Positions 4,487 through 38,787 of a stretch of 46,201 nucleotides of DNA are shown here, piece by piece (position 1 is the first letter of the stretch; each line of letters opens with the position of its first letter). Origin of the DNA: Minisyncoccia bacterium. GTDB taxonomy: Bacteria; Patescibacteriota; Minisyncoccia; Phycocordibacterales; UBA1550. The notes under the pieces were generated by a model. That model was not told the DNA's origin. It was given only the letters and a program-made list of their open reading frames with translations, and searched no databases. The stretch is from the NCBI GenBank assembly GCA_049294435.1, contig JBAQCU010000020.1, positions 79,110 to 125,310 on the forward strand, written 5' to 3'. Position numbers and translations under genes: made by a program.

Positions 4487-4573
4487 ACAACTGACCGCCA
4501 ACATTTAACAATTGACCAGAAAAAACGAATTGCATATAGTTCAACTGTCTCAGATGTCACCTGTCAAATGTTC
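4487..4573. repeat. TTGAC-word element, copy L2 (divergent rpsP/rnr intergenic region)
   Basis: acaactgaccgccaacatttaacaattgacc ... caactgtctcagatgtcacctgtcaaatgt. Same words as L1 and L3-L5. Confidence 0.4.
4512..4540 (+). promoter_or_regulatory. Sigma-70 type promoter for rnr
   Basis: TTGACC (4512-4517), 17 nt spacer, TATAGT (4535-4540). Confidence 0.55.
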
Positions 4574-6628
4574 CCCAATTGTGCTATCTTAATGAACAAT
4601 ATGACAGATAAAAAACAACTTGAATCAGCAGATTCACGTCTTGGGCGCTCCGGCAACTTTGTTGAAGGTGTTATTACCACAACGGCAAAGGGTTTCGGCT
4701 TTGTTTCTGTTGGCGAAGATAGTCCACGAGAAAACGACATTAAAATTGAGGCGGGGTTTCTCAATACCGCACTCCCACGCGACCGTGTAAAGGTGAGACT
4801 CAATGCCAAAATAAGCGACATACAACAGACTGGCGAGGTGGTTGAGGTACTTGCGCGCGCTAAGAACACTTTTGTTGGAACAATAGAGCAAGACAGTACG
4901 ACAACTTACTTAATTCCTCAAGACACGCGTATTTATGTTGACTTTCTTATTCCAAACCCACCGCACGAGGAAGAACTCAATGGCAAAAAAGTACTCGTAC
5001 GACTTTCAGGCTGGACAGACCCAAAGAAAAATCCTACGGCGGAGATTATTGAGGTTCTCGGTCAGGCTGGAGACAATGAAACAGAGATCCGCGCTATAGT
5101 CCTCGACAAAGGTCTCCAAATGGAGCTCCCAGATGAAATTCACCGCGAAGCTGACGCACTCAAGGCCAAGGCTCCAGCGTTCATCGCAGATGAAGCAAAG
5201 AAGCGACGCGACTTCCGCAAGGTAACAACTTTTACCATCGACCCTGTAGACGCAAAGGATTTTGACGATGCTATTTCTATACAAACACTTCCGAGCGGCG
5301 ACATCGAAATTGGTGTACATATTGCAGATGTGTCTGCATACGTAAAGCCACACGCGGCAATAGACGAAGAAGCTCGCCGTCGCGCAACATCTATATACTT
5401 AGTGGACCGTGTTGTACCAATGTTCCCTGAGGTTCTTTCAAACGACCTTTGTAGTTTGAACGAAAAAGAAGACAAGCTTGTTTTTTCAGCTGTGTTTACA
5501 TTCGCGCCAGATACTGCAAGCAACCCAACATCAAAAGTAACTGTGGAGGACGCATGGTTCGGACGCGCAATCATCAACTCGGCGAAGCGTTTTACATACG
5601 AGAACGCGCAAGAAATTCTCGATAATGGCAAAGGACTTTTTTATGATGAACTGAATACTCTCAATCTCATCGCAAAAAAATTGGTAGTACAGGACAGAAC
5701 AGAAGGCGCAATTTCCTTTGAACACGAGGAAGTGCGTTTTGAGTTGGACGAAAACAAAAAGCCTATTCGCGTGTACACAAAAAAGTTTCAAGATACTAAC
5801 AAGCTCGTTGAAATGTTTATGTTGCTCGCAAACAAAAAAGTTGCGGAATACGTTTCTTTAAAATTGAGTAACATTCAAGGAAAAACTGCTCACCCCGACC
5901 ACGAGGGAGATCTCTTTGTGTACCGCGTGCACGACGAGCCCAAAACAGAACGCCTTGTTGAGCTCTCAAAATTTGTCGCAGGACTTGGCTACAAGCTCCC
6001 TATCAAGGAAGGGCGTGTTTCATCCTCTGATATAAATAAATTCCTCGAACAGATAAAGGGCAAGCCTGAGGAAAATATGTTGAACACCGCAACCATTCGC
6101 ACAATGGCTAAAGCGATTTATTCCACACACAACATCGGGCACTACGGTCTTGCTTACGAGCACTACACTCACTTCACATCCCCTATTCGCCGTTATCCAG
6201 ACGTAATGGTACATCGCATTCTCGCCCACTTCCTCGCTGATGAAAAGGTGACTAAAGAGGAGATGGAGGAATACCGTAAACTCGCCTCTCACTCATCAGA
6301 AATGGAAAAGGCCGCGTCAGATGCCGAAAGAGCTTCTATCAAATTTAAACAGGCTGAGTATATGAGCGTGCGCGTGGGCAAGGAGTTTAACGGCACAATT
6401 TCGGGAGTTGCTGAGTGGGGTGTATTTGTGGAAGAAGATGAGACCAAGTGTGAAGGCCTCATTCGCATTTCTGATTTGGGTAATGACTACTATATTTTTG
6501 AAAGAGACAAATATCGCATTGTTGGCAGGCAAGGAAAGGAAAAATTCCAACTTGGCGATAAAATAAAGTTCCGCGTAAAAGAAGTTGATTTGGAAAAGAA
6601 GAGCATTGACTACGAACTGGTGAGGTAG
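4568..6628 (+). CDS. rnr: Ribonuclease R (RNB-family 3'-5' exoribonuclease)
   Basis: 686 aa with cold-shock-like N-terminus (KGFGFV), RNB motifs (DPVDAKDFDDAISI, HYGL..YTHFTSPIRRYPD) and a C-terminal S1 domain. The start could also be the ATG at 4592 or 4601. Confidence 0.9.
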   Translation: MFPNCAILMNNMTDKKQLESADSRLGRSGNFVEGVITTTAKGFGFVSVGEDSPRENDIKIEAGFLNTALPRDRVKVRLNAKISDIQQTGEVVEVLARAKNTFVGTIEQDSTTTYLIPQDTRIYVDFLIPNPPHEEELNGKKVLVRLSGWTDPKKNPTAEIIEVLGQAGDNETEIRAIVLDKGLQMELPDEIHREADALKAKAPAFIADEAKKRRDFRKVTTFTIDPVDAKDFDDAISIQTLPSGDIEIGVHIADVSAYVKPHAAIDEEARRRATSIYLVDRVVPMFPEVLSNDLCSLNEKEDKLVFSAVFTFAPDTASNPTSKVTVEDAWFGRAIINSAKRFTYENAQEILDNGKGLFYDELNTLNLIAKKLVVQDRTEGAISFEHEEVRFELDENKKPIRVYTKKFQDTNKLVEMFMLLANKKVAEYVSLKLSNIQGKTAHPDHEGDLFVYRVHDEPKTERLVELSKFVAGLGYKLPIKEGRVSSSDINKFLEQIKGKPEENMLNTATIRTMAKAIYSTHNIGHYGLAYEHYTHFTSPIRRYPDVMVHRILAHFLADEKVTKEEMEEYRKLASHSSEMEKAASDAERASIKFKQAEYMSVRVGKEFNGTISGVAEWGVFVEEDETKCEGLIRISDLGNDYYIFERDKYRIVGRQGKEKFQLGDKIKFRVKEVDLEKKSIDYELVR

Positions 6629-9268: not shown

Positions 9269-9277
9269 TGGATTTAG

Positions 9278-9422
9278 TTTACCCCGACACCAACTTTTTG
9301 CATAGTGTTTAATCGCATATCTATCATTTGAGAGTAACCAATTCCCTTACTAGCTTATAAGATATCAGTGATAAAAACGAAAAACACACTGCAATAATGC
9401 AAAAGTTGGTGTGGGGGTTTAA
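9278..9422. repeat. Start-codon-proximal inverted-repeat element, copy A (upstream of smc)
   Basis: Arms tttaccccgacaccaactttttgcata (9278-9304) and aatgcaaaagttggtgtgggggtttaa (9396-9422). The proximal arm ends 9 nt before the smc ATG. Confidence 0.7.
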
Positions 9423-10661: not shown

Positions 10662-11075
10662 TCAGTTGTGTGTTTTATTTAGTAAAATATTCACCGCTTT
10701 TGTGATCACGGGAAGCATATCGTCATACATATTGAGGTCAATAATCTCTGCGAGCTTGAACCACTTTGCGTCATCGAGACCACCTGTCTTCATAAGTTTA
10801 ATATCCTGGTATGGCGCTTCGCAGAGGAAGTAGCTCACGTGCTTTCGCATCTTTCCTTTTTCTGGATGCGATGCTACATATTCATTCTCGCCAAGGATTA
10901 CACCTGGAGTTACAGGAAGATTGATTTCCTCTTTTACAATGCGTGTAATAGCGGTTACGTCGTCTTCACCTTCCTTGTAATGCCCCTTTGAAAGAGTCCA
11001 GTGTCCAAAGATATCGTGTACAAGTCCCAAGTACACATTCTCGCCGTCGCGTGCATACACCACTGCTCCACCGAG
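10662..11075 (-). other. Nudix-like domain portion of the NusB fusion
   Basis: G-x5-E-x7-R-I-V-K-E-E-I-N-L, compared with the Nudix box G-x5-E-x7-REUxEExGU. The EE pair is kept, while the RE glutamate and the Gly are replaced. Confidence 0.6.
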
Positions 11076-11576
11076 CTTGTCGAGAGGAAGTGTCTTTGGA
11101 TCCACGGGCACGTGCGGAGTTTTCTTCTTGCCCGTTTCGTCTTTGCCGGGCTCGCCGAGCTCTTTGTATACCGCGCCAAGTACACCGTTTATAAACTTAC
11201 CACTCGTCTCCCCGCCATAAGTTTTTGCTAGTTCAATGGCTTCGTTGATAGCAACCTTTGCTGGAACTTGTGTGCGATCCTCAAAGAGAAGCTCATATAG
11301 TCCGATGCGTAATATATTTCTATCAACAAGCGCAATTTTTTCTATTGGCCAATCTGGTGCCGCTTTCTCGATGATGTCGTCAAGTTTAGTTTGTTTACTC
11401 AAAATTCCCAAGAGAAGCTTTCTCATAAACGTAATATCGTTTACCCCTGGTGCAAACTCTTCTGCGTTGCGAACAAGCGCGTGTTCTATTTCAAGATCAG
11501 TTAACGTTCCTCCACGAAAATCCCATTCATAAAGAACCTGCATAACTATACTTCTTGAAAGGTGCCTGTTTGCCAT
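10662..11576 (-). CDS. nusB: NusB antitermination factor fused to a C-terminal Nudix-like domain
   Basis: Residues 1 to ~140 are typical NusB (RSIVMQVLYEWDF..., VPAKVAINEAIELAKTYGGETSGKFINGVLGAV). A Lys/Pro-rich linker follows, then ~135 aa with a Nudix-box-like GHYKEGEDDVTAITRIVKEEINL. Confidence 0.85.
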   Translation of the reverse strand: MANRHLSRSIVMQVLYEWDFRGGTLTDLEIEHALVRNAEEFAPGVNDITFMRKLLLGILSKQTKLDDIIEKAAPDWPIEKIALVDRNILRIGLYELLFEDRTQVPAKVAINEAIELAKTYGGETSGKFINGVLGAVYKELGEPGKDETGKKKTPHVPVDPKTLPLDKLGGAVVYARDGENVYLGLVHDIFGHWTLSKGHYKEGEDDVTAITRIVKEEINLPVTPGVILGENEYVASHPEKGKMRKHVSYFLCEAPYQDIKLMKTGGLDDAKWFKLAEIIDLNMYDDMLPVITKAVNILLNKTHN

Positions 11577-13008: not shown

Positions 13009-13017
13009 TTTTTACAG

Positions 13018-13110
13018 TATACCCCCACACCTACTTTTAATATAATTGAAAGACATCATTCTAGAAAACTACACTATGCCTATTAGAAATAAAGTAGGTG
13101 TGGGGGTATA
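13018..13110. repeat. Start-codon-proximal inverted-repeat element, copy B (upstream of rnhB)
   Basis: Perfect 20 bp arms tatacccccacacctacttt (13018-13037) / aaagtaggtgtgggggtata (13091-13110), 53 nt spacer. The proximal arm ends 9 nt before the rnhB ATG. Confidence 0.8.
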
Positions 13111-23143: not shown

Positions 23144-25519
23144 TTACCGCACACCAAGTCCTTTTTCAGAAAGTTTTGCAGTAATATTTGCCATTACTTC
23201 ATTTATCTCCATGTCTGAAAGTGTGCGCTCGGGCGACTGGAATACAAGATTGAACGCGTAGGAAGTTTTTGAGTCTTTTGTAAACACGTCGAAAAGTCTA
23301 TCGTGCACAAGCAAATCGGTTCCTTCCGATCTAATGATCTTAATAATTTCATCTTGCGTTACGTCCTGTGTCCACAGTGCAATATCGCGAAGCACAAACG
23401 GGTATGCGGAAATTCTCTTATAAGGAACATTTACTGATGAAGGAGTTAGTGGTTCGTATTTCCCGCTGGTATTTTTGCATACAGGAAGCGGGCACTCCCA
23501 CACGTTACCATTCTCACTCCAGGAAACCTCGACGCCAAAAACATCTTCAACTGCTTTGTGCGCTTGGTGCAGGATTATGCGCTCCATTTCCTCCTTTTTA
23601 GACTGCTTCATATTTTTTGTCACTGTTGCACCGATAGAGATATGTATAGATTCTTTTCCAGCCGAAAAAAATACTGTGCCGATTTCAAACATTAAAATTT
23701 GATCCGTGCCCAATAAAGGGGCGTTGCGCGCATTAAACACGAGGGCTTCTGCCATCCCGTCGGAGAGATTATCGCGGAGAAAATTCACTCCCTCTGCCAT
23801 AGGATTTACGATTTCAACTTTTCCATCTTTGCGAAATGCATAAGTAAAAATCTCGGAGAAACCAAGCGAAGCAAAAGTGTTGCGTACACGAAGCATTGTG
23901 TCGTAAAGATCATTGTGGGTCGGTGTAAAAGCATCTGGAGCAAGTTTTGCAACAGAGATTTTTTCGTACCCTATCAAACGCGCAATCTCTTCAGTGATAT
24001 CTGCAGAAATACGGATATCAAAGCGTTCTGCTGGTGCGACTACTGAAAACCTCTCTTTTTTAATTGCAGGAATTCGTCTCGCCCCTGTGATATTTTTGAA
24101 ACGAGGACTATCTGCGAGTTTTTCAATAAGAACACCACCTGCTTCTCCGATAATTTTATTGTAGCGTGAGGCGTGTGCTATCATTCCGTCGCCAAGATAC
24201 ACGCCCACGTGGTCTATTCCTTGTTCTCGTATTTTTGTCCCTTTCATCCATTCAATACTTTCGTGATAAATCTCGCTACCTTCATTTACTGAGAAAACTA
24301 AATCTCCAGCCTGGAGCGCGTCTAGTGAGACGTCATCTCCAAACACATACTGATCAACTGAAATTCGTGGGATTTTTATTCCCGCTTCTAGATATAGGTA
24401 CGCCACGAACCCTGAGCAGTCAAACTTATTTGGAGCGTCAAATAGTACACTAGCGCCGTAAAAGTACGGAGTGCCGACTAATTCCTTCGCGCGAAGCGCG
24501 ATTTTTTTACCAGGATTTTCAATCTGTTCATATGAAAAACCAAGTCTCGTTAAATCCCGCATTAAGTCCTCCGTTCTATAAGTAATTCCTAAAATACGCG
24601 CAACGTCATTTGATGACATACTAACGCGATATGGGTTAGCTCTACGCGGATACACATCCACTATTTCGCCTGCTTTCGCGTCTGGGAAAATTTCTAAAAG
24701 AAGTTCGGTTGAGCGCTCCATTGCGATCGGCGCAATTTCTGGCGCGCGGTTGTGCTCAAAACGGCGAGATGAATCGGTGCGGATGTTTACCGAGGCAGAC
24801 GCTTTGCGCACGAGAGCCGAATCAAACGTTGCCGATTCCAGTACTATAGTATTTACTTTTGCTCCGACCCCTGCATGCGCGCCTCCTTTCACCCCAGCGA
24901 TTGCTAGTGGCCGTATTTTGTCGGCAATTACAAGGGTTTCATTCGGAAGAATGATGTCTTTACCATCCAACGTCTCAATTTTTTCTTTTGCTTCGTTTGT
25001 ATTGCGCACGATGATTTTAATTCCACCATTTACGTCGCGATTTAACTTATCGGCATCAAATGCGTGCATTGGTTGTCCAAGCTCAAGCATTACAAAATTT
25101 GTCACATCTACAATCGCGTTTATACTTCTCTGCCCTACCGATTCAAGCGCATCACGAAGCCACGCAGGCGATTCACGACCATCTACCCCTTCCACAACTC
25201 TACCAACATATCGCAAACACGCTTTTGGTTCTCTCACTTCAACCTCTAGAGCTGCCCTAATTTCAGATGTTTTTACTTTTGGTGAAAAAGATTTGAGCTT
25301 AACATCGCTGAACACTGCCAACTCTCGCACGAGTCCTATCCACGACAAAAGGTGTCCTCGGTCAGGGGTAATCTTTAATTCAAAAATAGTATCGTCATTT
25401 TTTTTGTCTGTACTTTCGACTTCACAGATGTACTCTAAAAAAATACGTGAGAGCTCCACAGGTTCTGGGAGATTATCGGCGTATTGCGTGAGGTTTTTGT
25501 ACGATGCAAAAATGTTCAT
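23144..25519 (-). CDS. pheT: Phenylalanyl-tRNA synthetase beta subunit with an inserted NlpC/P60 domain
   Basis: 791 aa with B3/4 (RYVGRVV..SPAWLRDALESVGQRSINAIVDVTNFVMLELGQPMHAFD), B5 (SNDVARILGITYRTEDLMRDLTRLGF), then a ~155 aa insert, then the canonical FSVVAPAERFDIRISADITEEIARLIGYEKI and C-terminal domains. Confidence 0.95.
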   Translation of the reverse strand: MNIFASYKNLTQYADNLPEPVELSRIFLEYICEVESTDKKNDDTIFELKITPDRGHLLSWIGLVRELAVFSDVKLKSFSPKVKTSEIRAALEVEVREPKACLRYVGRVVEGVDGRESPAWLRDALESVGQRSINAIVDVTNFVMLELGQPMHAFDADKLNRDVNGGIKIIVRNTNEAKEKIETLDGKDIILPNETLVIADKIRPLAIAGVKGGAHAGVGAKVNTIVLESATFDSALVRKASASVNIRTDSSRRFEHNRAPEIAPIAMERSTELLLEIFPDAKAGEIVDVYPRRANPYRVSMSSNDVARILGITYRTEDLMRDLTRLGFSYEQIENPGKKIALRAKELVGTPYFYGASVLFDAPNKFDCSGFVAYLYLEAGIKIPRISVDQYVFGDDVSLDALQAGDLVFSVNEGSEIYHESIEWMKGTKIREQGIDHVGVYLGDGMIAHASRYNKIIGEAGGVLIEKLADSPRFKNITGARRIPAIKKERFSVVAPAERFDIRISADITEEIARLIGYEKISVAKLAPDAFTPTHNDLYDTMLRVRNTFASLGFSEIFTYAFRKDGKVEIVNPMAEGVNFLRDNLSDGMAEALVFNARNAPLLGTDQILMFEIGTVFFSAGKESIHISIGATVTKNMKQSKKEEMERIILHQAHKAVEDVFGVEVSWSENGNVWECPLPVCKNTSGKYEPLTPSSVNVPYKRISAYPFVLRDIALWTQDVTQDEIIKIIRSEGTDLLVHDRLFDVFTKDSKTSYAFNLVFQSPERTLSDMEINEVMANITAKLSEKGLGVR
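24056..24523 (-). other. NlpC/P60 papain-like hydrolase domain inserted in PheT (about residues 333-488)
   Basis: GTPYFYGASVLFDAPNKFDCSGFVAYLY (catalytic Cys), GDLVFS, IDHVGVYLGDGMIAHAS (His plus third polar residue). The family motifs appear in the canonical order. Confidence 0.75.
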
Positions 25520-26337: not shown

Positions 26338-26347
26338 AATCCCTTTA

Positions 26348-26491
26348 GTTTACCTCAACACCTACTTTTTGCATAATTTTTGCCGCCATTCCAAAATTGG
26401 TAAAAAATCTGGTCTAGTCTTACATAACTGGCCTTTTAAGTTAGAAATTAAAAAAAATGGCAATAATGCAAAAGTAAGTGTTGGGGTTTAC
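26348..26491. repeat. Start-codon-proximal inverted-repeat element, copy C (upstream of pheS)
   Basis: Arms gtttacctcaacacctactttttgcataat (26348-26377) / ataatgcaaaagtaagtgttggggtttac (26463-26491). The proximal arm ends 10 nt before the pheS ATG. Confidence 0.7.
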
Positions 26492-31271: not shown

Positions 31272-31340
31272 TTACTCTCCATCCTCCGCATCTCCCACGG
31301 TACCCTTTGCGCAGGCTTCCAAGATGGGCTCAATGTTGCC
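31272..31340 (-). pseudogene. Displaced duplicate of the prfA 3' end (last 22 codons plus stop)
   Basis: Translates to GNIEPILEACAKGTVGDAEDGE*, versus GNIEPILEACAKGTVGDAQEGE* for functional prfA (32102-32170). 57 of 69 nt are identical by hand alignment, and the differences are mostly synonymous. Confidence 0.75.
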
Positions 31341-31344
31341 GACA

Positions 31345-31365
31345 CTTGGAAACCGGACATCCAAG
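31345..31365 (+). repeat. REP-like hairpin motif, copy 1 (flanks the transposase gene)
   Basis: cttgga aaccggaca tccaag. A variant of GGAAACCCGACGTCCAAG. Confidence 0.6.
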
Positions 31366-31368
31366 TAC

Positions 31369-32058
31369 CTACAATTCCTCTGCAAAGATATCGGTATTGT
31401 CTCGACTAGCAGCCCTTCTATTTAAAATATCATTCAAGGTTGAGAGCGCGAACTTTTTATATTCACGAATATTTTTGTACTGCTCCAAAATAATATCTTT
31501 ATTACAAAAATTACTTTCTGCTTCTCCTATGTATTCTCCCCAGCTCGTTCTGCTCTTTACCAACTTGGACGTCGGGTTTCCAAGTTGGTGGACACGGTCG
31601 TTTAAGTTCACATAAGCACTTGAATGAAGTAAGTATTCATTTGAATCTATATGAACAGCTTTGTACTTCCCTTGAAACAAAACTCCTGACCGCTTATGCT
31701 TTTCGTTAAAATATTTTGTATATCCTCCACCAAGTCTTTTCATAAACATACTCACTCCGTCATCAACAAGTTGCTCTAATATAAAATGATAATGATTTGG
31801 GTTAAGACAATATGCAACAAAGTTAACAAGTCTTTTCTCTTTTACTTTTTCAGATTTCGACTTCGACGTCGGGTTTCCAGGTTTTTGCTTTTTAAATGAA
31901 TTTTCAAAAATACTTCCTATTGGTTCAACAGTATTGAACTCCTCCATACTCTGCATAAAACGGTCAACATCACTTTCATCAGAAAAAACGGTTCGCTTGT
32001 CTGTCCCACGATTGTACACGTGATAGAACTCACCATTTGCAAAAGAAATATTTCTCAT
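31369..32058 (-). CDS. IS200/IS605-type Y1 (HUH) transposase, RAYT-like
   Basis: 229 aa from MRNISFANGEFYHVYNRG.., with the HUH motif NPNHYHFIL, YTKYFNEKHKRSGVLFQGKYK, and Tyr in SSAYVNLN. The ORF-track N-terminal extension runs through flanking repeat copy 4. Confidence 0.8.
   Translation of the reverse strand: MRNISFANGEFYHVYNRGTDKRTVFSDESDVDRFMQSMEEFNTVEPIGSIFENSFKKQKPGNPTSKSKSEKVKEKRLVNFVAYCLNPNHYHFILEQLVDDGVSMFMKRLGGGYTKYFNEKHKRSGVLFQGKYKAVHIDSNEYLLHSSAYVNLNDRVHQLGNPTSKLVKSRTSWGEYIGEAESNFCNKDIILEQYKNIREYKKFALSTLNDILNRRAASRDNTDIFAEEL
31560..31588 (-). repeat. REP-like motif, copy 2 (inside the transposase CDS, 10 bp stem)
   Basis: ccaacttgga cgtcgggtt tccaagttgg. Encodes ..LGNPTSKL.. 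Confidence 0.6.
31864..31881 (-). repeat. REP-like motif, copy 3 (inside the transposase CDS)
   Basis: cgacgtcgggtttccagg. Encodes ..PGNPTSK.. Confidence 0.55.
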
Positions 32059-32077
32059 GTGCCTTCTATTGTACCAT

Positions 32078-32097
32078 TTGGAAACCCGACGTCCAAG
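32078..32097 (+). repeat. REP-like hairpin motif, copy 4 (5 nt after the prfA stop)
   Basis: ttgga aacccgacg tccaa g. Confidence 0.6.
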
Positions 32098-32101
32098 TAG
32101 A

Positions 32102-33070
32102 TTATTCACCTTCCTGCGCATCGCCCACTGTCCCCTTTGCACAGGCTTCTAGGATTGGCTCAATATTGCCGAGGAAAATCTTTTCAATATTGCTCCACGA
32201 CTGTTTGATGCGGTGGTCGGTGATGCGGTCTTGAAGAATGTTGTAGGTGCGGATTTTCTCCGAGCGGTCGCCGGTACCAATCTGACCTTTGCGGTCTGCG
32301 GACACATCACTCTCCTTTTTTGCGCGATCAATGTCCTCGAGTCGCGCCATAAGCATCGACATTGCCTTCTCGCGGTTCTTTACTTGGCTTCGCTCGCTTG
32401 TGCAACGCACCGCGAGGCCTGTTGGTTTGTGAATGATACGCACGGCAGTTTCCACTTTGTTCACGTTCTGGCCACCCGCACCACCAGAGCGAGAGAACTC
32501 CATCTCGAGGTCTGCAGGATTAATAGTGAAAGTTGTTACTGGATAAATAGGAAGCACCACTACTGAAGCAGTGGAAGTATGCACACGTCCCATTTTTTCT
32601 GTTGCGGGAATGCGCTGTACACGGTGCACGCCAGTCTCCCAGCGGAGCATGTCGTATGCATCTTTGCTTTTTATTTCAAACGATGCTTCTTTGTAGCCAC
32701 CCATTTCACTCTGATGCTCATCAAGCTTTTTAAATTCCCATCCTTTTTTTTCAGCAAAGCGTTCGTACATCATCGCGAGATCCTGTGCAAAAATTGCCGC
32801 CTCTTCTCCCCCCGCACCAGCACGCACTTCTAAAATAATCTCCTTTGGCCTAACCTCCTCCTCCTTATCACCATCAATAATCTCTGTCATCTGTTTTTCA
32901 AGTGCATCAATCTGCGAACGAAGAGTTGCGAGCTCACTCGCGCCCATCTCGGCGAATTCTCCGTCTGCCGATATCATTCCCTCCACCTCCGCCTCAGCAG
33001 TCAAAAGACGCTCGTACTCATCTGCGAGATATTTTGTTTTTTGATTTGATTTGAATGTTTCAATGTCCAT
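32102..33070 (-). CDS. prfA: Peptide chain release factor 1
   Basis: 322 aa with the PAT tripeptide (RIPATEKMGRVHTS) and the GGQ motif (SGGAGGQNVNKVETAVR). Confidence 0.95.
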   Translation of the reverse strand: MDIETFKSNQKTKYLADEYERLLTAEAEVEGMISADGEFAEMGASELATLRSQIDALEKQMTEIIDGDKEEEVRPKEIILEVRAGAGGEEAAIFAQDLAMMYERFAEKKGWEFKKLDEHQSEMGGYKEASFEIKSKDAYDMLRWETGVHRVQRIPATEKMGRVHTSTASVVVLPIYPVTTFTINPADLEMEFSRSGGAGGQNVNKVETAVRIIHKPTGLAVRCTSERSQVKNREKAMSMLMARLEDIDRAKKESDVSADRKGQIGTGDRSEKIRTYNILQDRITDHRIKQSWSNIEKIFLGNIEPILEACAKGTVGDAQEGE

Positions 33071-33537: not shown

Positions 33538-33549
33538 AGATAGGTTCCT

Positions 33550-33635
33550 GTATACCCCCACACCTACTTTTTGTGCCAGAACATTGTATTTTTACCGCTC
33601 ATATAAATATGCAAAAAGTAGGTGTGGGGGTATAC
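33550..33635. repeat. Start-codon-proximal inverted-repeat element, copy D (upstream of the nuclease gene)
   Basis: Perfect 23 bp arms gtatacccccacacctacttttt / aaaaagtaggtgtgggggtatac, 40 nt spacer. The proximal arm ends 8 nt before ATG 33644. Confidence 0.8.
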
Positions 33636-35192: not shown

Positions 35193-36089
35193 CTATCGTT
35201 CCATTCCTCGGAGAACCGCGATACGTTCAGATGCTTCCGGGTGTGTGGCAAAAAGTTTACTCATAAACGAGACTGCCTTACCGTTTTTGAGCGGGTTTGA
35301 TATATACAGATGAGCTGTGGCGGTGCTCACTCGCTGAAGTCCTGTTGGATATGCGGATATTTTTTCTAGAGCAGATGCGAGCCCTTCTGGGTAGCGTGTA
35401 AGGAGCGCGCCAGATGCATCCGCGAGAAATTCACGTTTGCGAGAAATAGCAAGTTTGATAAGTTGAGCAACGATTGGGGTTAGGATTGCGAATACTATCC
35501 CAATTATCATAAGTATCAACCCAAGACGACCATCACGATTATTATTATTACCACCATAGAATGACATTCTTAAAAAAATGTCGGAAATAATTGCAATAAA
35601 ACCAACAAGTACTACAACCACAGTACCAATCAAAGTATCCCTGTTTCCTATATGCGAAAGCTCGTGCGCTATTACTCCTTCAAGTTCAGTTTTGTTTAAA
35701 ATCGCGAGAAGCCCTGTTGTTGCCGCGACTGCCGCATGATCCTTGTCGCGCCCTGTTGCGAATGCGTTTGGGGATGGGTCATCAATGACATACACCTTTG
35801 GCATCGGAAGCCCTGCGGTGATTGAGAGATTTTCAACAGCATTCCACAAATCAAAATACTCCTCACGCTTGGCAGGTTTTGCCCCTGACATTTTAATCAC
35901 CAGTGAATCCGAATACCAATAACTCCAGATGTTCATGCCGACACTGAAAATGACACCGAAATAAAGTATCGTTGGATTATTTTGAATATAACTAAACAAC
36001 CACGCGATACCGATAACCACCACGAAAAAAATGGTCATTAAAAACCAAGTCTTTCGTACATTTTTATCTTGGTGGGTATATAAAGTCAT
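35193..36089 (-). CDS. htpX: HtpX-type M48 membrane zinc protease
   Basis: HELSHIGNRD (HExxH) plus TM helices. I prefer ATG 36089 (MTLYTHQDKNVRKTW..), because the longer ORF would overlap hicA. Confidence 0.9.
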   Translation of the reverse strand: MTLYTHQDKNVRKTWFLMTIFFVVVIGIAWLFSYIQNNPTILYFGVIFSVGMNIWSYWYSDSLVIKMSGAKPAKREEYFDLWNAVENLSITAGLPMPKVYVIDDPSPNAFATGRDKDHAAVAATTGLLAILNKTELEGVIAHELSHIGNRDTLIGTVVVVLVGFIAIISDIFLRMSFYGGNNNNRDGRLGLILMIIGIVFAILTPIVAQLIKLAISRKREFLADASGALLTRYPEGLASALEKISAYPTGLQRVSTATAHLYISNPLKNGKAVSFMSKLFATHPEASERIAVLRGMER

Positions 36090-36111
36090 TTTGAATTTTG
36101 AATAACAATTA

Positions 36112-36318
36112 TTAGTTCTTTCCAAAACTTTCTATAGCAAGGTAGATTTGCTTTACTATTTTAGGATGCAAAATTGCACTGCCGTGAATCGGTAAAGTAA
36201 TCCTTATACCTTCACGGTAATACTGCGCGTGGCTACCTGCTTGCCTTCCAAACACAAAACCTTTACCCTCAATGAGGTCGACGGCCTCCTTCGCACTTAG
36301 TCTTGGAGATTTAGGCAT
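36112..36318 (-). CDS. hicA: HicA-family mRNA interferase toxin
   Basis: 68 aa: MPKSPRLSAKEAVDLIEGKGFVFGRQAGSHAQYY.. Typical HicA/YcfA. Confidence 0.8.
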   Translation of the reverse strand: MPKSPRLSAKEAVDLIEGKGFVFGRQAGSHAQYYREGIRITLPIHGSAILHPKIVKQIYLAIESFGKN

Positions 36319-36321
36319 GTG

Positions 36322-36549
36322 CTAGGAAGAAAGAGTCAGAGACGATATTGTGAGAGAAACGGAGTCTCTTAAATCAACACGCTCTCCACGAGACTTAATG
36401 TCATCAAGTGTCATTTTTAAAACATCTTTTAGATTTTCACGCACATTCTCTTCTGTGTCACCTTGCGCATAAACCCCCTGGATGAACGGGCACTCAGCAT
36501 AATATCCATCCTCTGTCTTTTCAATAATAATTGGATATGTATTTGTCAT
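36322..36549 (-). CDS. hicB: HicB-family antitoxin
   Basis: 75 aa from MTNTYPIIIEKTEDGYYAECPFIQGVYAQGDTEENVRENLKDVL. Its stop is 3 nt before the hicA start. Confidence 0.75.
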   Translation of the reverse strand: MTNTYPIIIEKTEDGYYAECPFIQGVYAQGDTEENVRENLKDVLKMTLDDIKSRGERVDLRDSVSLTISSLTLSS

Positions 36550-36584
36550 ACCGAAACTATACCACATACGCTGACCTGTGCAAG

Positions 36585-36632
36585 CCATGTTTTGCACACA
36601 TTTTTATCTTGGTGGGTGTATAGGGTTGCCAT
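36585..36632 (-). pseudogene. Fossil copy B of the htpX 5' end (16 codons)
   Basis: ATGGCAACCCTATACACCCACCAAGATAAAAATGTGTGCAAAACATGG = MATLYTHQDKNVCKTW. It then diverges, and the frame stops 8 nt before hicB. Confidence 0.7.
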
Positions 36633-36639
36633 AAAATAT

Positions 36640-37002
36640 TTAAAAATTCGAAGAAATAAGGGACCCCATCATACCAAATAGCGCCAAGATCACCAAAGAA
36701 AAAAGGATCCATGCTGCGATTTTGAAAGGGGTGCGCATTCCTGGGATATCGTTCCCCTGAGCAGAATCGGGGCTCACTGCTGGCAATGTATTTTTTTTAC
36801 TTACTACCAAAAAATATGCAAAATTTAACAAAGAAACTAACATCACTCCTGTCCCCAGAAATGTGAGTACTTGTATAACATACTGAAGGTTGTGCCAATT
36901 ACCGCGAACAAGCAATCCTTGACCCAATATTAACAAGGCACCCGCTATTTTAAAGTCGCGTATGAGTACCCTCCTTTTTTCCTTAAAGATATCTGGGTTC
37001 AT
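36640..37002 (-). CDS. Hypothetical membrane protein (cassette between htpX 5' copies C and B)
   Basis: 120 aa from MNPDIFKEKRRV.., with 3-4 TM helices. The start is uncertain, since a TTG at 37050 is also possible. Confidence 0.5.
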   Translation of the reverse strand: MNPDIFKEKRRVLIRDFKIAGALLILGQGLLVRGNWHNLQYVIQVLTFLGTGVMLVSLLNFAYFLVVSKKNTLPAVSPDSAQGNDIPGMRTPFKIAAWILFSLVILALFGMMGSLISSNF

Positions 37003-37054
37003 GTTTTTAGAGGGGCCACCTTTGAGTGTGCGATTAGTTAGATAGACCAACCCT

Positions 37055-37120
37055 GAAGATCGTCATCAAAAGCCACGTCTTGCGCACATTTTTATCTTGC
37101 TGGGTGTAAAGGGTTGCCAT
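37055..37120 (-). pseudogene. Fossil copy C of the htpX 5' end (22 codons)
   Basis: MATLYTQQDKNVRKTWLLMTIF, versus MTLYTHQDKNVRKTWFLMTIF for functional htpX. It then diverges to RVGLSN*. Confidence 0.7.
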
Positions 37121-37150: not shown

Positions 37151-37185
37151 AATCAAAAAACACGCGCAAAGCGTGTTTTTTGATT
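37151..37185. terminator. Bidirectional terminator after the DUF805 gene
   Basis: aatcaaaaaacacgc gcaaa gcgtgttttttgatt. Confidence 0.75.
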
Positions 37186-37198
37186 GTTATAGAATCTT

Positions 37199-37585
37199 TT
37201 AGCACAAGTGCCCCTCTAGGCCAATTACTGTTCCTTTTGGATTCTGGCCATACTGATTATCAGTAGGATCACTATCCATCACTAAAAAGACAATCCATAC
37301 AATAAAGCCAACAAGTGGAACTAATATAATGAGGAGCCACCACCCACTGTGATTAGTATCATGGAATCTTCTTACTGTCACTGCTAGACTAGGAATATAC
37401 AGTGCTAAAGCATAAAGCAAAGCGACGACAAAGACTACAATCTCCGAAACACCAAAAAGGTCGAGGAAACTAATTGCAACAGTAATAAGTACGTTAAACA
37501 ACGTAAAATACCAATACTCTGATCGTGTAGCTCTCCCGCTAAACACTGCGTACTTTTTCAAAACACCTAAATAATAATTCATCAT
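37199..37585 (-). CDS. DUF805-family inner membrane protein
   Basis: GRATRSEYWYFTLFNVLI...RRFHDTNHSGWWLLI. Characteristic DUF805 motifs. Confidence 0.8.
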   Translation of the reverse strand: MMNYYLGVLKKYAVFSGRATRSEYWYFTLFNVLITVAISFLDLFGVSEIVVFVVALLYALALYIPSLAVTVRRFHDTNHSGWWLLIILVPLVGFIVWIVFLVMDSDPTDNQYGQNPKGTVIGLEGHLC

Positions 37586-37681: not shown

Positions 37682-38185
37682 CTACCCAATATTTATTTGA
37701 ACATGTTTTCTCATGTCTATTGTCCCAGAAATATCCAAGGTTGCATTGAGTGTCCAGTCTATGCGTGCATTAGGAATACCTATCCCAATACCTGTACCGG
37801 CAAGACTATCGAGCATGCCACCAATATTTACTCCGCCAATACTTGCCTTAGCAAGAATGCTTTGACCTTGTGTTTGTGGTAAAACATTTACGGGAATGAT
37901 TATCTCAAAAGGATACTGTGCCTCAGCGTACTCCTTTTGCCCATCCAAAGGAAGCTCGAACTGATATATTGTGACTTTATCTTGTGATTGATAGCTGCTC
38001 CCTTTAGAGTCAGTACGCCATGTTGTTGATATCTTCTCGCCCTTTAGCGAAATAGAAAATTTATTTGCCTGTGTTGGCTTTTTCAATTTCAAAGAAACCG
38101 TTCCACGTATTGTCTCTCCTGGGTGATAATTATATTGTTCTGGCGTAATGACAATGTCTCCCCTGCTGAATAATCCAAATAGCAT
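37682..38185 (-). CDS. Hypothetical beta-sandwich protein, possibly arrestin/Spo0M-like
   Basis: 167 aa. PGETIRGTVSLKLKKPTQANKFSISLKGEK resembles arrestin-N/Spo0M-type sequences. Co-oriented directly downstream of lemA. The assignment is weak. Confidence 0.5.
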   Translation of the reverse strand: MLFGLFSRGDIVITPEQYNYHPGETIRGTVSLKLKKPTQANKFSISLKGEKISTTWRTDSKGSSYQSQDKVTIYQFELPLDGQKEYAEAQYPFEIIIPVNVLPQTQGQSILAKASIGGVNIGGMLDSLAGTGIGIGIPNARIDWTLNATLDISGTIDMRKHVQINIG

Positions 38186-38205: not shown

Positions 38206-38787
38206 TTAGAACTTGACTGCTACTGGCTCACGAGCAGCCTCGTTGTCGAGCTCGAAGAATTCTTGTTTAATAAACTTAAACATTCCAGCAATCATATTTC
38301 CTGGGAATGATTCGATGGCGATGTTGAGGTCACGCACGTTGCCGTTGTAGAAGCGGCGTGATGCTTGGATCTTGTTTTCAGTATCTGCAAGTTCTGCCTG
38401 AAGTGAAAGGAAGTTTTGGTTTGCTTTTAGATCTGGGTACGCCTCTGCTACTGCAAGAAGTTTACCGAGTGACTGACCGAGAGATGCTTCTGCTCCGGAC
38501 ATTGCTACAATTTGTTCAGCGGTGATATTACTTGGGTCAATATGTACCTGTGTTGCCTTTGCACGCGCCTCTGTGACTGCTTCAAAAACTCCGCTTTCGT
38601 GCTTTGCATATCCCTTTACTGTTTCTATAAGGTTGGGGATAAGGTCATAGCGGCGCTTGAGCTGAACGTCGATATCTGCCCATGCCTCCTTGGTGCGATT
38701 TACCAAACTAACAAAACTGTTGTAAGCAAAAATAGCCCACAAAATGATAACTGCCAGAACCCCTAAAATAATGTATGTTGGTGTCAT
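38206..38787 (-). CDS. lemA: LemA family membrane protein
   Basis: N-terminal TM, then NSFVSLVNRTKEAWADIDVQLKRRYDLIPNLIETVKGYAKHE. Confidence 0.9.
   Translation of the reverse strand: MTPTYIILGVLAVIILWAIFAYNSFVSLVNRTKEAWADIDVQLKRRYDLIPNLIETVKGYAKHESGVFEAVTEARAKATQVHIDPSNITAEQIVAMSGAEASLGQSLGKLLAVAEAYPDLKANQNFLSLQAELADTENKIQASRRFYNGNVRDLNIAIESFPGNMIAGMFKFIKQEFFELDNEAAREPVAVKF

Follow-up and report, generated by a model that had tools for sequence, protein, structure and literature searches.

The gene htpX, which codes for an M48 protease on the minus strand of a 46-kb window from a Minisyncoccia bacterium (the window being the whole stretch of DNA analysed, which lies on a contig of at least 125 kb and whose coordinates are used throughout), is preceded by two fossil copies of its own 5' end. 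Together with the functional start, these copies delimit two inserted units: a hicBA toxin-antitoxin (TA) pair and, upstream of it, a hydrophobic open reading frame (ORF) of 120 aa. Differences among the copies are almost all synonymous, and each therefore stems from a working htpX gene of a diverged lineage. The reading favoured here, at a probability of roughly 60%, is that the first ~20 codons of htpX received two nested insertions, with the crossover taking place in short htpX-derived homology and no dedicated recombinase being needed. The relatives of its HtpX place the host in the Paceibacteria/Parcubacteria part of the Candidate Phyla Radiation (CPR); below, L-numbers (e.g., L004, L082 and L165) are labels of the related loci and contigs compared with the window.

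On the minus strand, the order is lemA, an arrestin-N-like gene, a DUF805 gene, copy C, the 120-aa ORF, copy B, hicB, hicA, htpX and a response-regulator gene, beyond which a tRNA-Ser lies on the plus strand. The stack itself comprises the following features:

35193–36089, minus strand: functional htpX (M48 protease; Pfam PF01435, 109 bits), with 85–87% amino-acid identity to the HtpX of L082 and L165
36024–36089, minus strand: copy A, the functional start of htpX (first ~22 codons; ATG at 36089), with an Ala-less start ATG ACT TTA (MTLYT)
36090–36111, minus strand: right flank of the hicBA cassette, TAATTGTTATTCAAAATTCAAA, from the hicA stop to the htpX ATG; homologous in L165 and L170 by alignment
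36112–36318, minus strand: hicA toxin gene, 68 aa (PF07927, 41 bits against a cut-off of 27; 16 homologues at 76–85% identity)
36322–36549, minus strand: hicB antitoxin gene, 75 aa (UPF0150, 33.2 bits against 27.3; HicB_lk_antitox, 26 bits)
36556–36583, minus strand: putative hicBA promoter, with TTGCAC (36583–36578), a 16-nt spacer and the extended -10 element TGG+TATAGT (36564–36556)
36582–36632, minus strand: copy B, a fossil htpX 5' end of 17 codons, MATLYTHQDKNVCKTWL; junction to the hicBA cassette after TGG CTT
36640–37002, minus strand: hydrophobic ORF of 120 aa, cargo of the upstream cassette; an ORFan whose status as a real gene is uncertain
37055–37120, minus strand: copy C, a fossil htpX 5' end of 22 codons, MATLYTQQDKNVRKTWLLMTIF; its frame continues to a stop at 37034–37036

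An initial annotation, made from the letters of the window alone, had proposed that three copies of the htpX 5' end bound these two inserts, and coordinates, alignment and motif statistics all agree with it. A repeat search of the window groups the copies as one 52-nt family (90% identity between B and C, 71% between A and B), and in a MAFFT alignment they match from the start codon on. A core 24-mer, allowed up to 3 mismatches, is found at exactly three sites in the window, namely the three copies, and at none in 100 shuffles, so that B and C are significantly similar to the start of htpX. Copies A and B share an identical 20-nt core, ACCCACCAAGATAAAAATGT. The bias toward third codon positions that had been noticed by eye is likewise upheld: copies A and C differ at 13 of 60 aligned bases, 11 of them at the third position, with two amino-acid changes. 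A hairpin in RNA or DNA at the htpX 5' end was considered as a recombination or regulatory signal and rejected (z-score -1.69; no consensus structure among 15 relatives).

The pattern extends beyond this one gene. When seven pairs of fossil and functional ends are pooled (htpX and prfA of the window, rplB of L164 twice, and one pair each from L165, L168 and L170), the differences at codon positions 1, 2 and 3 number 12, 4 and 52 (binomial p = 4e-13). Only 14 of the 68 differences are nonsynonymous, as against 79% expected under random change (p = 3e-24), and this count also lies below that of a model in which the fossil alone decays (p = 8e-4). The pooled differences are too synonymous for the free decay of one copy, which excludes duplication in place followed by decay.

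The cargo between copies B and A consists of two adjacent small genes with both domains above the Pfam thresholds, and is by these sequence features a predicted type II TA pair of the hicBA kind; the 75-aa homologues of HicB begin MT[NS][ST]YPI. The cassette adjoins the fossil closely. The initial annotation had the copy-B frame stopping 8 nt before hicB; its TGA instead overlaps the hicB ATG (36549–36547) as ATGA. Further upstream, the TTG of the putative -35 element overlaps the last codon of fossil copy B, and the motif TGTGGTAYAGT is invariant in sequence and in its spacing from the hicB ATG across 8 cassette copies over 6 contexts, even as a scan with a generic promoter consensus did not pick the element up. 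It is inferred that hicBA is transcribed from its own extended -10 promoter, partly built on the fossil junction; with 6 nt between this element and the ATG of hicB, the gene pair probably has a leaderless transcript. The gene tables of L081 and L165 carry hicB calls of 81 or 88 aa, with starts inside the fossil or the promoter, and an htpX call of 281 aa, for which an internal start was chosen. For annotators, short fossil ORFs and miscalled starts of this kind (htpX at 281/310 aa; hicB at 81/88/91 aa) are artefacts of insertion.

The product of the 120-aa ORF matches only itself among 5.8 billion proteins, and its match to DUF2157 is below threshold. Neither this ORF nor the DNA from copy C to copy B has a DNA or tblastx match in 170 related loci.

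Comparison with relatives provides the states before and between such insertions. The conserved upstream partner of htpX is the following gene:

38206–38787, minus strand: lemA (PF04011, 201 bits), adjoining htpX in empty alleles

Of 160 species-level related loci, 128 have lemA upstream of htpX in the same orientation, 68 of them with a gap of at most 200 nt, and adjacency of lemA and htpX is the ancestral state. Empty alleles are seen in L082, whose HtpX is among the closest (85% aa identity) and in which lemA is followed by a 34-nt gap, htpX and the response regulator, and in L084, which has the same arrangement (HtpX 74%). Where the two genes stand further apart, the space between them is taken up by recurrent operon partners (DUF2207, NUDIX, Gmad2-like) or by small genes that look selfish, such as those for YafQ/ParE-type toxins and 23S-rRNA-IVP proteins. 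No second htpX 5' fragment was found in the 160 loci by tblastn with the three peptides or by Smith-Waterman comparison with the first 75 nt of each locus's own gene; the informative alleles were reached solely by tracing the contigs of HicA homologues. Among these is L165, a metagenome-assembled genome of Yonathbacteria that shares synteny with the window between RNase J and tsf and has an HtpX 87% identical. This locus and L166 (from Logan) carry a single cassette in the order lemA, fossil htpX start, hicBA, htpX, and L170 has fossil, hicBA, htpX. Another double stack occurs in L168 (1531–2982), with a first fossil, hicBA, a second fossil, a second and unrelated hicBA pair, and htpX. Hence empty alleles, single alleles and two kinds of double allele, counting that of the window, all exist, and the empty and single-cassette states that the initial annotation had led one to expect are present in relatives. 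Two weaker candidates for fossils were rejected: in L004, which has a more distant hicBA directly upstream of htpX, the apparent match to ATGGCTTGCA is a shared promoter -35 region, and in L138, a weak peptide match upstream of htpX sits inside a 289-aa membrane protein.

The alleles also reveal which parts of the locus travel together. The fossil stops at one and the same place, htpX codon 17 (TGG YTT), in the window, L165, L166, L168 and L170, and the junction is followed by GCR and then by the invariant TGTGGTATAGT, 6 bases before the hicB ATG. On the other side of the cassette, the right flank TTATTYAAAATTCRAM and the Ala-less start (ATG ACx YTN TAT) accompany hicBA in the window, L165 and L170, while in the window, L168 and L170 the start usual in the family, ATG GCA ACC (MATLYT), is retained by the upstream fossil. 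Within the fossil, the left half is of the resident type and the right half (GAT AAA AAT GTG ... TGG YTT GCR) tracks hicBA; it does so even in L168, where htpX itself has GAT CAG AAT GTT. In L170 the resident-like sequence extends to codon 17, and in L165 the fossil and functional copies do not differ in their first 23 nt (34 nt contain one mismatch), so that the points of crossover or conversion vary. Recombination of the resident gene with an htpX 5' segment carried by the cassette would be expected to give just this pattern, a fossil that is resident on the left and cassette-like on the right, together with a gene that is cassette-like on the left and resident on the right. The proposal that the cassettes brought replacement 5' ends is borne out in so far as TTATTYAAAATTCRAM and the Ala-less start travel with hicBA, whereas the order of events and the enzymology remain matters of interpretation. 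As a general marker of upstream inserts, the MTLYT start fails (a gap above 200 nt in 10 of 20 such loci as against 60 of 128 overall), and its link holds for the first hicBA cassette only.

These observations may be accommodated in the following scheme. Each sub-kilobase cassette would have comprised a junction to a 3'-truncated htpX 5' fragment, a cargo with its own promoter and a replacement htpX start, and crossover would have occurred between the resident htpX and the cassette-borne copy from a diverged Paceibacteria lineage, with one hybrid copy staying upstream as the fossil and the other restoring an intact htpX. The working gene would be cassette-derived on the left and resident on the right, and the fossil the converse. 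Copy C may then be seen as resident on the left, with a right part (22 codons) brought by the membrane-ORF cassette, which would also have supplied the start that is now the left part of copy B; the structure is compatible with either order of the two htpX insertions. Such units could arise in two steps. In the first, a rare illegitimate join at microhomology, of the type termed homology-facilitated illegitimate recombination (HFIR), would create a unit of cargo and gene end. In the second, DNA uptake and host homologous recombination would spread the unit, with the gene-end copy serving as a homology arm of 50–140 nt, or else the direct repeats would recombine with each other and release a circle that re-integrates in the Campbell manner. 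The two-step model is favoured because of the short microhomology at the junctions: the htpX codons TGG-TTT-TTG face GGTTTGCG in the cassette -35 region (GGTTTGYG in other contexts), and TGGTTTG is common to htpX codons 16–18 and that region. Survivors would sit at gene ends because the gene stays whole only where the homology of the insertion spans its start or stop codon.

The same mode of insertion is seen at other genes, as the initial annotation had suspected from prfA. The hicBA cassette itself occurs in five contexts besides htpX: between a methyltransferase gene and rnhB (L162, L163), after rplB (L164), in L167, in L169 and in L171/L172; in these, homology begins at the promoter and does not reach beyond the hicA stop. 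In L164 the rplB 3' end is present three times (137/137/97–99 nt, at 4544–4680, 5212–5348 and about 6071–6169), and its copies, with ratios of synonymous to nonsynonymous differences of 10:1 and 9:0, delimit hicBA and a second two-gene cassette. The latter (4544–6170) has two small overlapping ORFs (65/78 and 89 aa) in a TA-like architecture and no Pfam match. Within the window, the prfA site has a comparable build:

32102–32170, minus strand: functional end of prfA (last 22 codons and stop)
31369–32058, minus strand: Y1_Tnp (IS200-like) gene, the cargo at the prfA site (PF01797, 32 bits against a cut-off of 23)
31272–31340, minus strand: fossil of the prfA 3' end, 69 nt, 83% identical, with 10 of 12 differences synonymous

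The prfA fossil is followed by a different hairpin, presumably the native terminator, and L165, where rpsB comes directly after prfA, represents the empty state of the site. A 21-nt hairpin motif, CTTGGACGTCGGGTTTCCAAG, flanks the Y1_Tnp gene at 32077–32097 and 31345–31365, and is found twice more inside the ORF in the opposite orientation, encoding GNPTSK (4 matches as against 0 expected). The initial annotation had held that the window encodes no recombinase, which this gene corrects, though it lies neither in nor next to the htpX cassettes.

A self-BLAST of 167 sequences (1.5 Mb) adds cases of several kinds: a gene 3' end duplicated around a PIN/VapC pair (L087, 2405–3115), the last 16 codons of htpX duplicated at its 3' end (L128, 3203–3506), and a second copy, lying 1.8 kb upstream, of 202 nt from the lemA 5' region, with mostly synonymous differences (L010, 1682–3705). 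By eye only, a GIY-YIG gene in L115 (2459–2793) is flanked by a duplicated stretch resembling the 5' part of a tRNA. Across the cases, the gene-end repeats measure 41–202 nt. The search also returned Y1_Tnp and PaaX/Cas2-like genes between intergenic direct repeats; one such Y1_Tnp homologue lies directly downstream of htpX in L090 (8907–9686) between 54-nt direct repeats, each with a palindrome, TTCCCATAGGTCSGACCTATGGGAA, and a promoter-like TGTGTTATAAT. Many short direct repeats (L032, L091, L045, L117) were not counted, being internal protein repeats, similar terminators or REP-like palindromes.

Several points weigh against homology-driven insertion. The cassette contexts of L162 and L169, which have adequate flanks, and further hicBA contexts on short contigs are without a duplication. 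The divergence of hicBA between the window and L165 (77–81% nucleotide identity) is similar to that of the flanking core genes (72–86%), so that hicBA might have been inserted long ago and passed on vertically, with gene conversion at a later stage, as opposed to a recent transfer. RecA-type recombination over 50–70 nt at 70–90% identity should be very inefficient, and the enzymology proposed is drawn from sequence comparison. The supposed membrane gene has no homologue and may be no gene at all. The 20-nt core ACCCACCAAGATAAAAATGT of copies A and B is also how the core of a site-specific recombinase would be expected to look, and a trans-acting enzyme may be encoded elsewhere in the genome, the search having covered 46 kb of the contig.

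These last two points lead to the alternative that survives best, though it is unlikely: a site-specific recombinase encoded elsewhere or on a helper would use the htpX 5' end as attB, and the cassettes would be integrase-less satellites or decayed remnants that accreted in tandem. Integrase-driven elements that regenerate the end of the target gene are familiar from e14 in icd and SXT in prfC, as is tandem accretion with integrase-less cis-mobilizable elements next to integrative and conjugative elements. Direct repeats of a gene end with regeneration of the gene, as found at htpX, are a hallmark of integrase-driven islands, among them those inserted at the dusA 5' end with a replacement end (PMC4482086) and the tycheposons with their stacked integrase-less units (10.1101/2020.12.28.424599). 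The window shares with such islands the foreign, mostly synonymous regenerated end, the stacked fossil ends that delimit the inserts and the integrase-less units between the repeats; moreover, the cassette boundaries are identical in five genomes. It departs from them in that the units are of ~0.5 kb and have no recombinase within or beside them, in that CPR genomes are the host and the htpX start and the rplB and prfA ends the targets, and in that one cargo family sits at several unrelated targets. Indeed, one hicBA cassette in six contexts, with a different duplicated sequence (the rplB 3' end in L164) or none seen, speaks against a single attachment site, and the variable repeat lengths and the mosaic break points, which differ among the window, L165, L168 and L170, against a fixed crossover core. 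No integrase or resolvase domain was found by Pfam in the window ORFs of at least 90 aa judged likely to be real genes, nor in the gene tables of the 10-kb loci L162, L164 and L165 around other cassettes. A phage or plasmid origin was examined and set aside, as no viral contig has the htpX motif or a close relative of HicB. On balance, homology-driven recombination is favoured over a trans-acting integrase.

Appreciably less probable is a break repair of the homing type, whereby a nuclease would cut the cassette-free gene end and repair would copy the cassette with its gene end from a diverged donor, the native end staying behind as a fossil where downstream homology is missing. The outcome, a functional end of the donor type with a native fossil, agrees with this, and the GIY-YIG gene within the tRNA-like duplication of L115 would fit. 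Native ends left over in this way are known from free-standing genes for endonucleases of organelles and phages, Allomyces atp6 being reportedly a precedent. Yet the htpX cassettes encode no DNA endonuclease, HicA being by its Pfam family an RNA-binding or RNase-type toxin, and the cargos are heterogeneous (TA pairs, an ORFan, Y1_Tnp).

It is quite improbable that the Y1 protein of 31369–32058 (IS200-like, of the HUH kind) mobilises the cassettes via single-strand DNA intermediates. It is the sole recombinase-type gene of the window and sits inside the analogous prfA duplication, and its homologue in L090 is placed just downstream of htpX between hairpin-containing direct repeats. However, the 21-nt hairpin motif occurs only four times, all within 31345–32097 and none near htpX, and L165 has the hicBA cassette with no Y1 gene after prfA or in its 10-kb locus. 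Elements of the IS200/IS605 group, moreover, do not duplicate 50–140 nt of their target. The combination of a Y1 gene and subterminal hairpins that marks these elements, or repetitive extragenic palindromes with their tyrosine transposases (REP/RAYT), is present in the prfA insert only.

Least tenable of all is a local tandem duplication with divergence in place, or a metagenome assembly artefact stringing strain variants together, to which the metagenomic origin of the sequence and the shortness of the repeats lend some colour: the differences are more synonymous than non-coding decay allows, no run of identical bases common to the copies exceeds 20 (shorter than the usual assembly k-mers) and the segments between them are mutually unrelated, the Logan contig L081 (9,668 nt) is 100% identical across the locus, though it may share the window's sample and possibly the same reads, and the same architecture recurs in NCBI, JGI and Logan assemblies of other samples, all of which makes the assembly duplication that the initial annotation had wished to see checked unlikely.

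Other classes of element fit the htpX cassettes no better. They have no terminal inverted repeats, edge hairpins or recombinase domain, and their duplications of 51–66 nt are diverged, which is unlike a DDE transposon with its transposase domain, terminal inverted repeats and identical target duplication of 2–15 bp; nor do they resemble integron cassettes, which end in an attC site of imperfect inverted repeats and depend on an intI/attI platform, there being no inverted repeats at their edges and no integrase in the window. The nearest mechanistic parallel to homology-driven insertion is the displacement model of the orphan toxin-tip and immunity arrays of Rhs, contact-dependent inhibition (CDI) and type VI secretion systems, where displacement occurs by homologous and illegitimate recombination (PMC5361080). 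In both, there is no dedicated recombinase, homology to a conserved stretch of a gene anchors the incoming module, the previous end of that gene is displaced and stacked, the cargo is of the toxin/antidote kind, and the stacked segments come from different strains or lineages as opposed to arising by duplication. In the orphan arrays, however, the host gene encodes a polymorphic toxin whose variable end is itself the cargo, while here the hosts are the housekeeping genes htpX (M48), rplB and prfA, with the protein conserved across copies and the cargo lying outside the gene.

A parallel might also be struck with homology-facilitated illegitimate recombination in natural transformation (PMC3240628; de Vries & Wackernagel 2002 and Prudhomme et al. 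2002, as cited in PMC5361080), in which one-sided homology and a join at microhomology give junctions such as that at TGGTTTG. The experiments on it dealt mainly with deletion of recipient DNA, whereas the window displays a net duplication of 50–140 nt with later reuse of the arm, of which no such description was found. A ParDE-like module of Microcystis fenced by 152-bp direct repeats (PMC7935541) is likewise a small self-regulated TA system between direct repeats beside a chromosomal gene; its repeats are identical, intergenic and contain internal inverted repeats, unlike the diverged coding gene ends of the window. What differs here is the combination of recombinase-less sub-kilobase cassettes, housekeeping targets with an unchanged protein, one cargo at several targets and a CPR host, and a full-text literature search found no description of such gene-end cassettes in CPR bacteria.

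The genomes of CPR bacteria (Patescibacteria) are tiny and have few recognisable mobile elements, and how these organisms gain genes is therefore an open question. The htpX locus and its relatives offer a concrete and recurrent route of gene gain, by which small cassettes, often TA pairs, enter the ends of conserved genes without breaking them, each insertion leaving a datable fossil. More tentatively, and at somewhat less than even odds, Paceibacteria, and perhaps CPR bacteria generally, could be seen as harbouring recombinase-free mobile cassettes for which 50–140 nt of a housekeeping-gene end serve as a portable integration site, such that units of a TA pair, a small ORF or a nuclease gene would pass between diverged lineages through DNA uptake and the host's homologous recombination, regenerate the gene at every insertion and leave silent stacks of fossils. 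Should homology-driven insertion prove right, duplicated gene ends would provide a simple rule for finding acquired genes, the fossil stacks would naturally record in what order and from which sources the insertions came, and the locus would allow the idea of gene-end homology as a portable attachment site to be put to the test.

The interval between lemA and the stack holds two further genes and a terminator:

37682–38185, minus strand: arrestin-N-like gene (Arrestin_N-like domain, 31 bits)
37199–37585, minus strand: DUF805 gene (Pfam)
37151–37185, no strand assigned: DUF805 terminator hairpin, a perfect 15-bp stem with T-runs on both sides

Neither gene was found by tblastn in the lemA–htpX interval of any of the 160 relatives, and no flanking duplication is seen around the pair. 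Copy C does follow directly after the DUF805 terminator, as had been noted initially, the hairpin lying 30 nt upstream of it.

Elsewhere in the window, pairs of inverted repeats (~20 nt, GTWTACCCCCACACCTACTTTT ... AAAAGTAGGTGTGGGGGTWTAC, 50–110 nt apart) occur at the intergenic positions 9272–9421, 13012–13110, 26343–26490 and 33545–33634; they have no Rfam match and may be either a regulator-binding divergent promoter module or a miniature element. The pheT gene for the beta chain of PheRS (23144–25519) codes for an NlpC/P60 peptidase domain at residues 349–457, between the B3_4 and B5 domains. A NusB-NUDIX fusion protein is encoded at 10662–11576 and is conserved in a Yonathbacteria relative (L162, 8488–9393).

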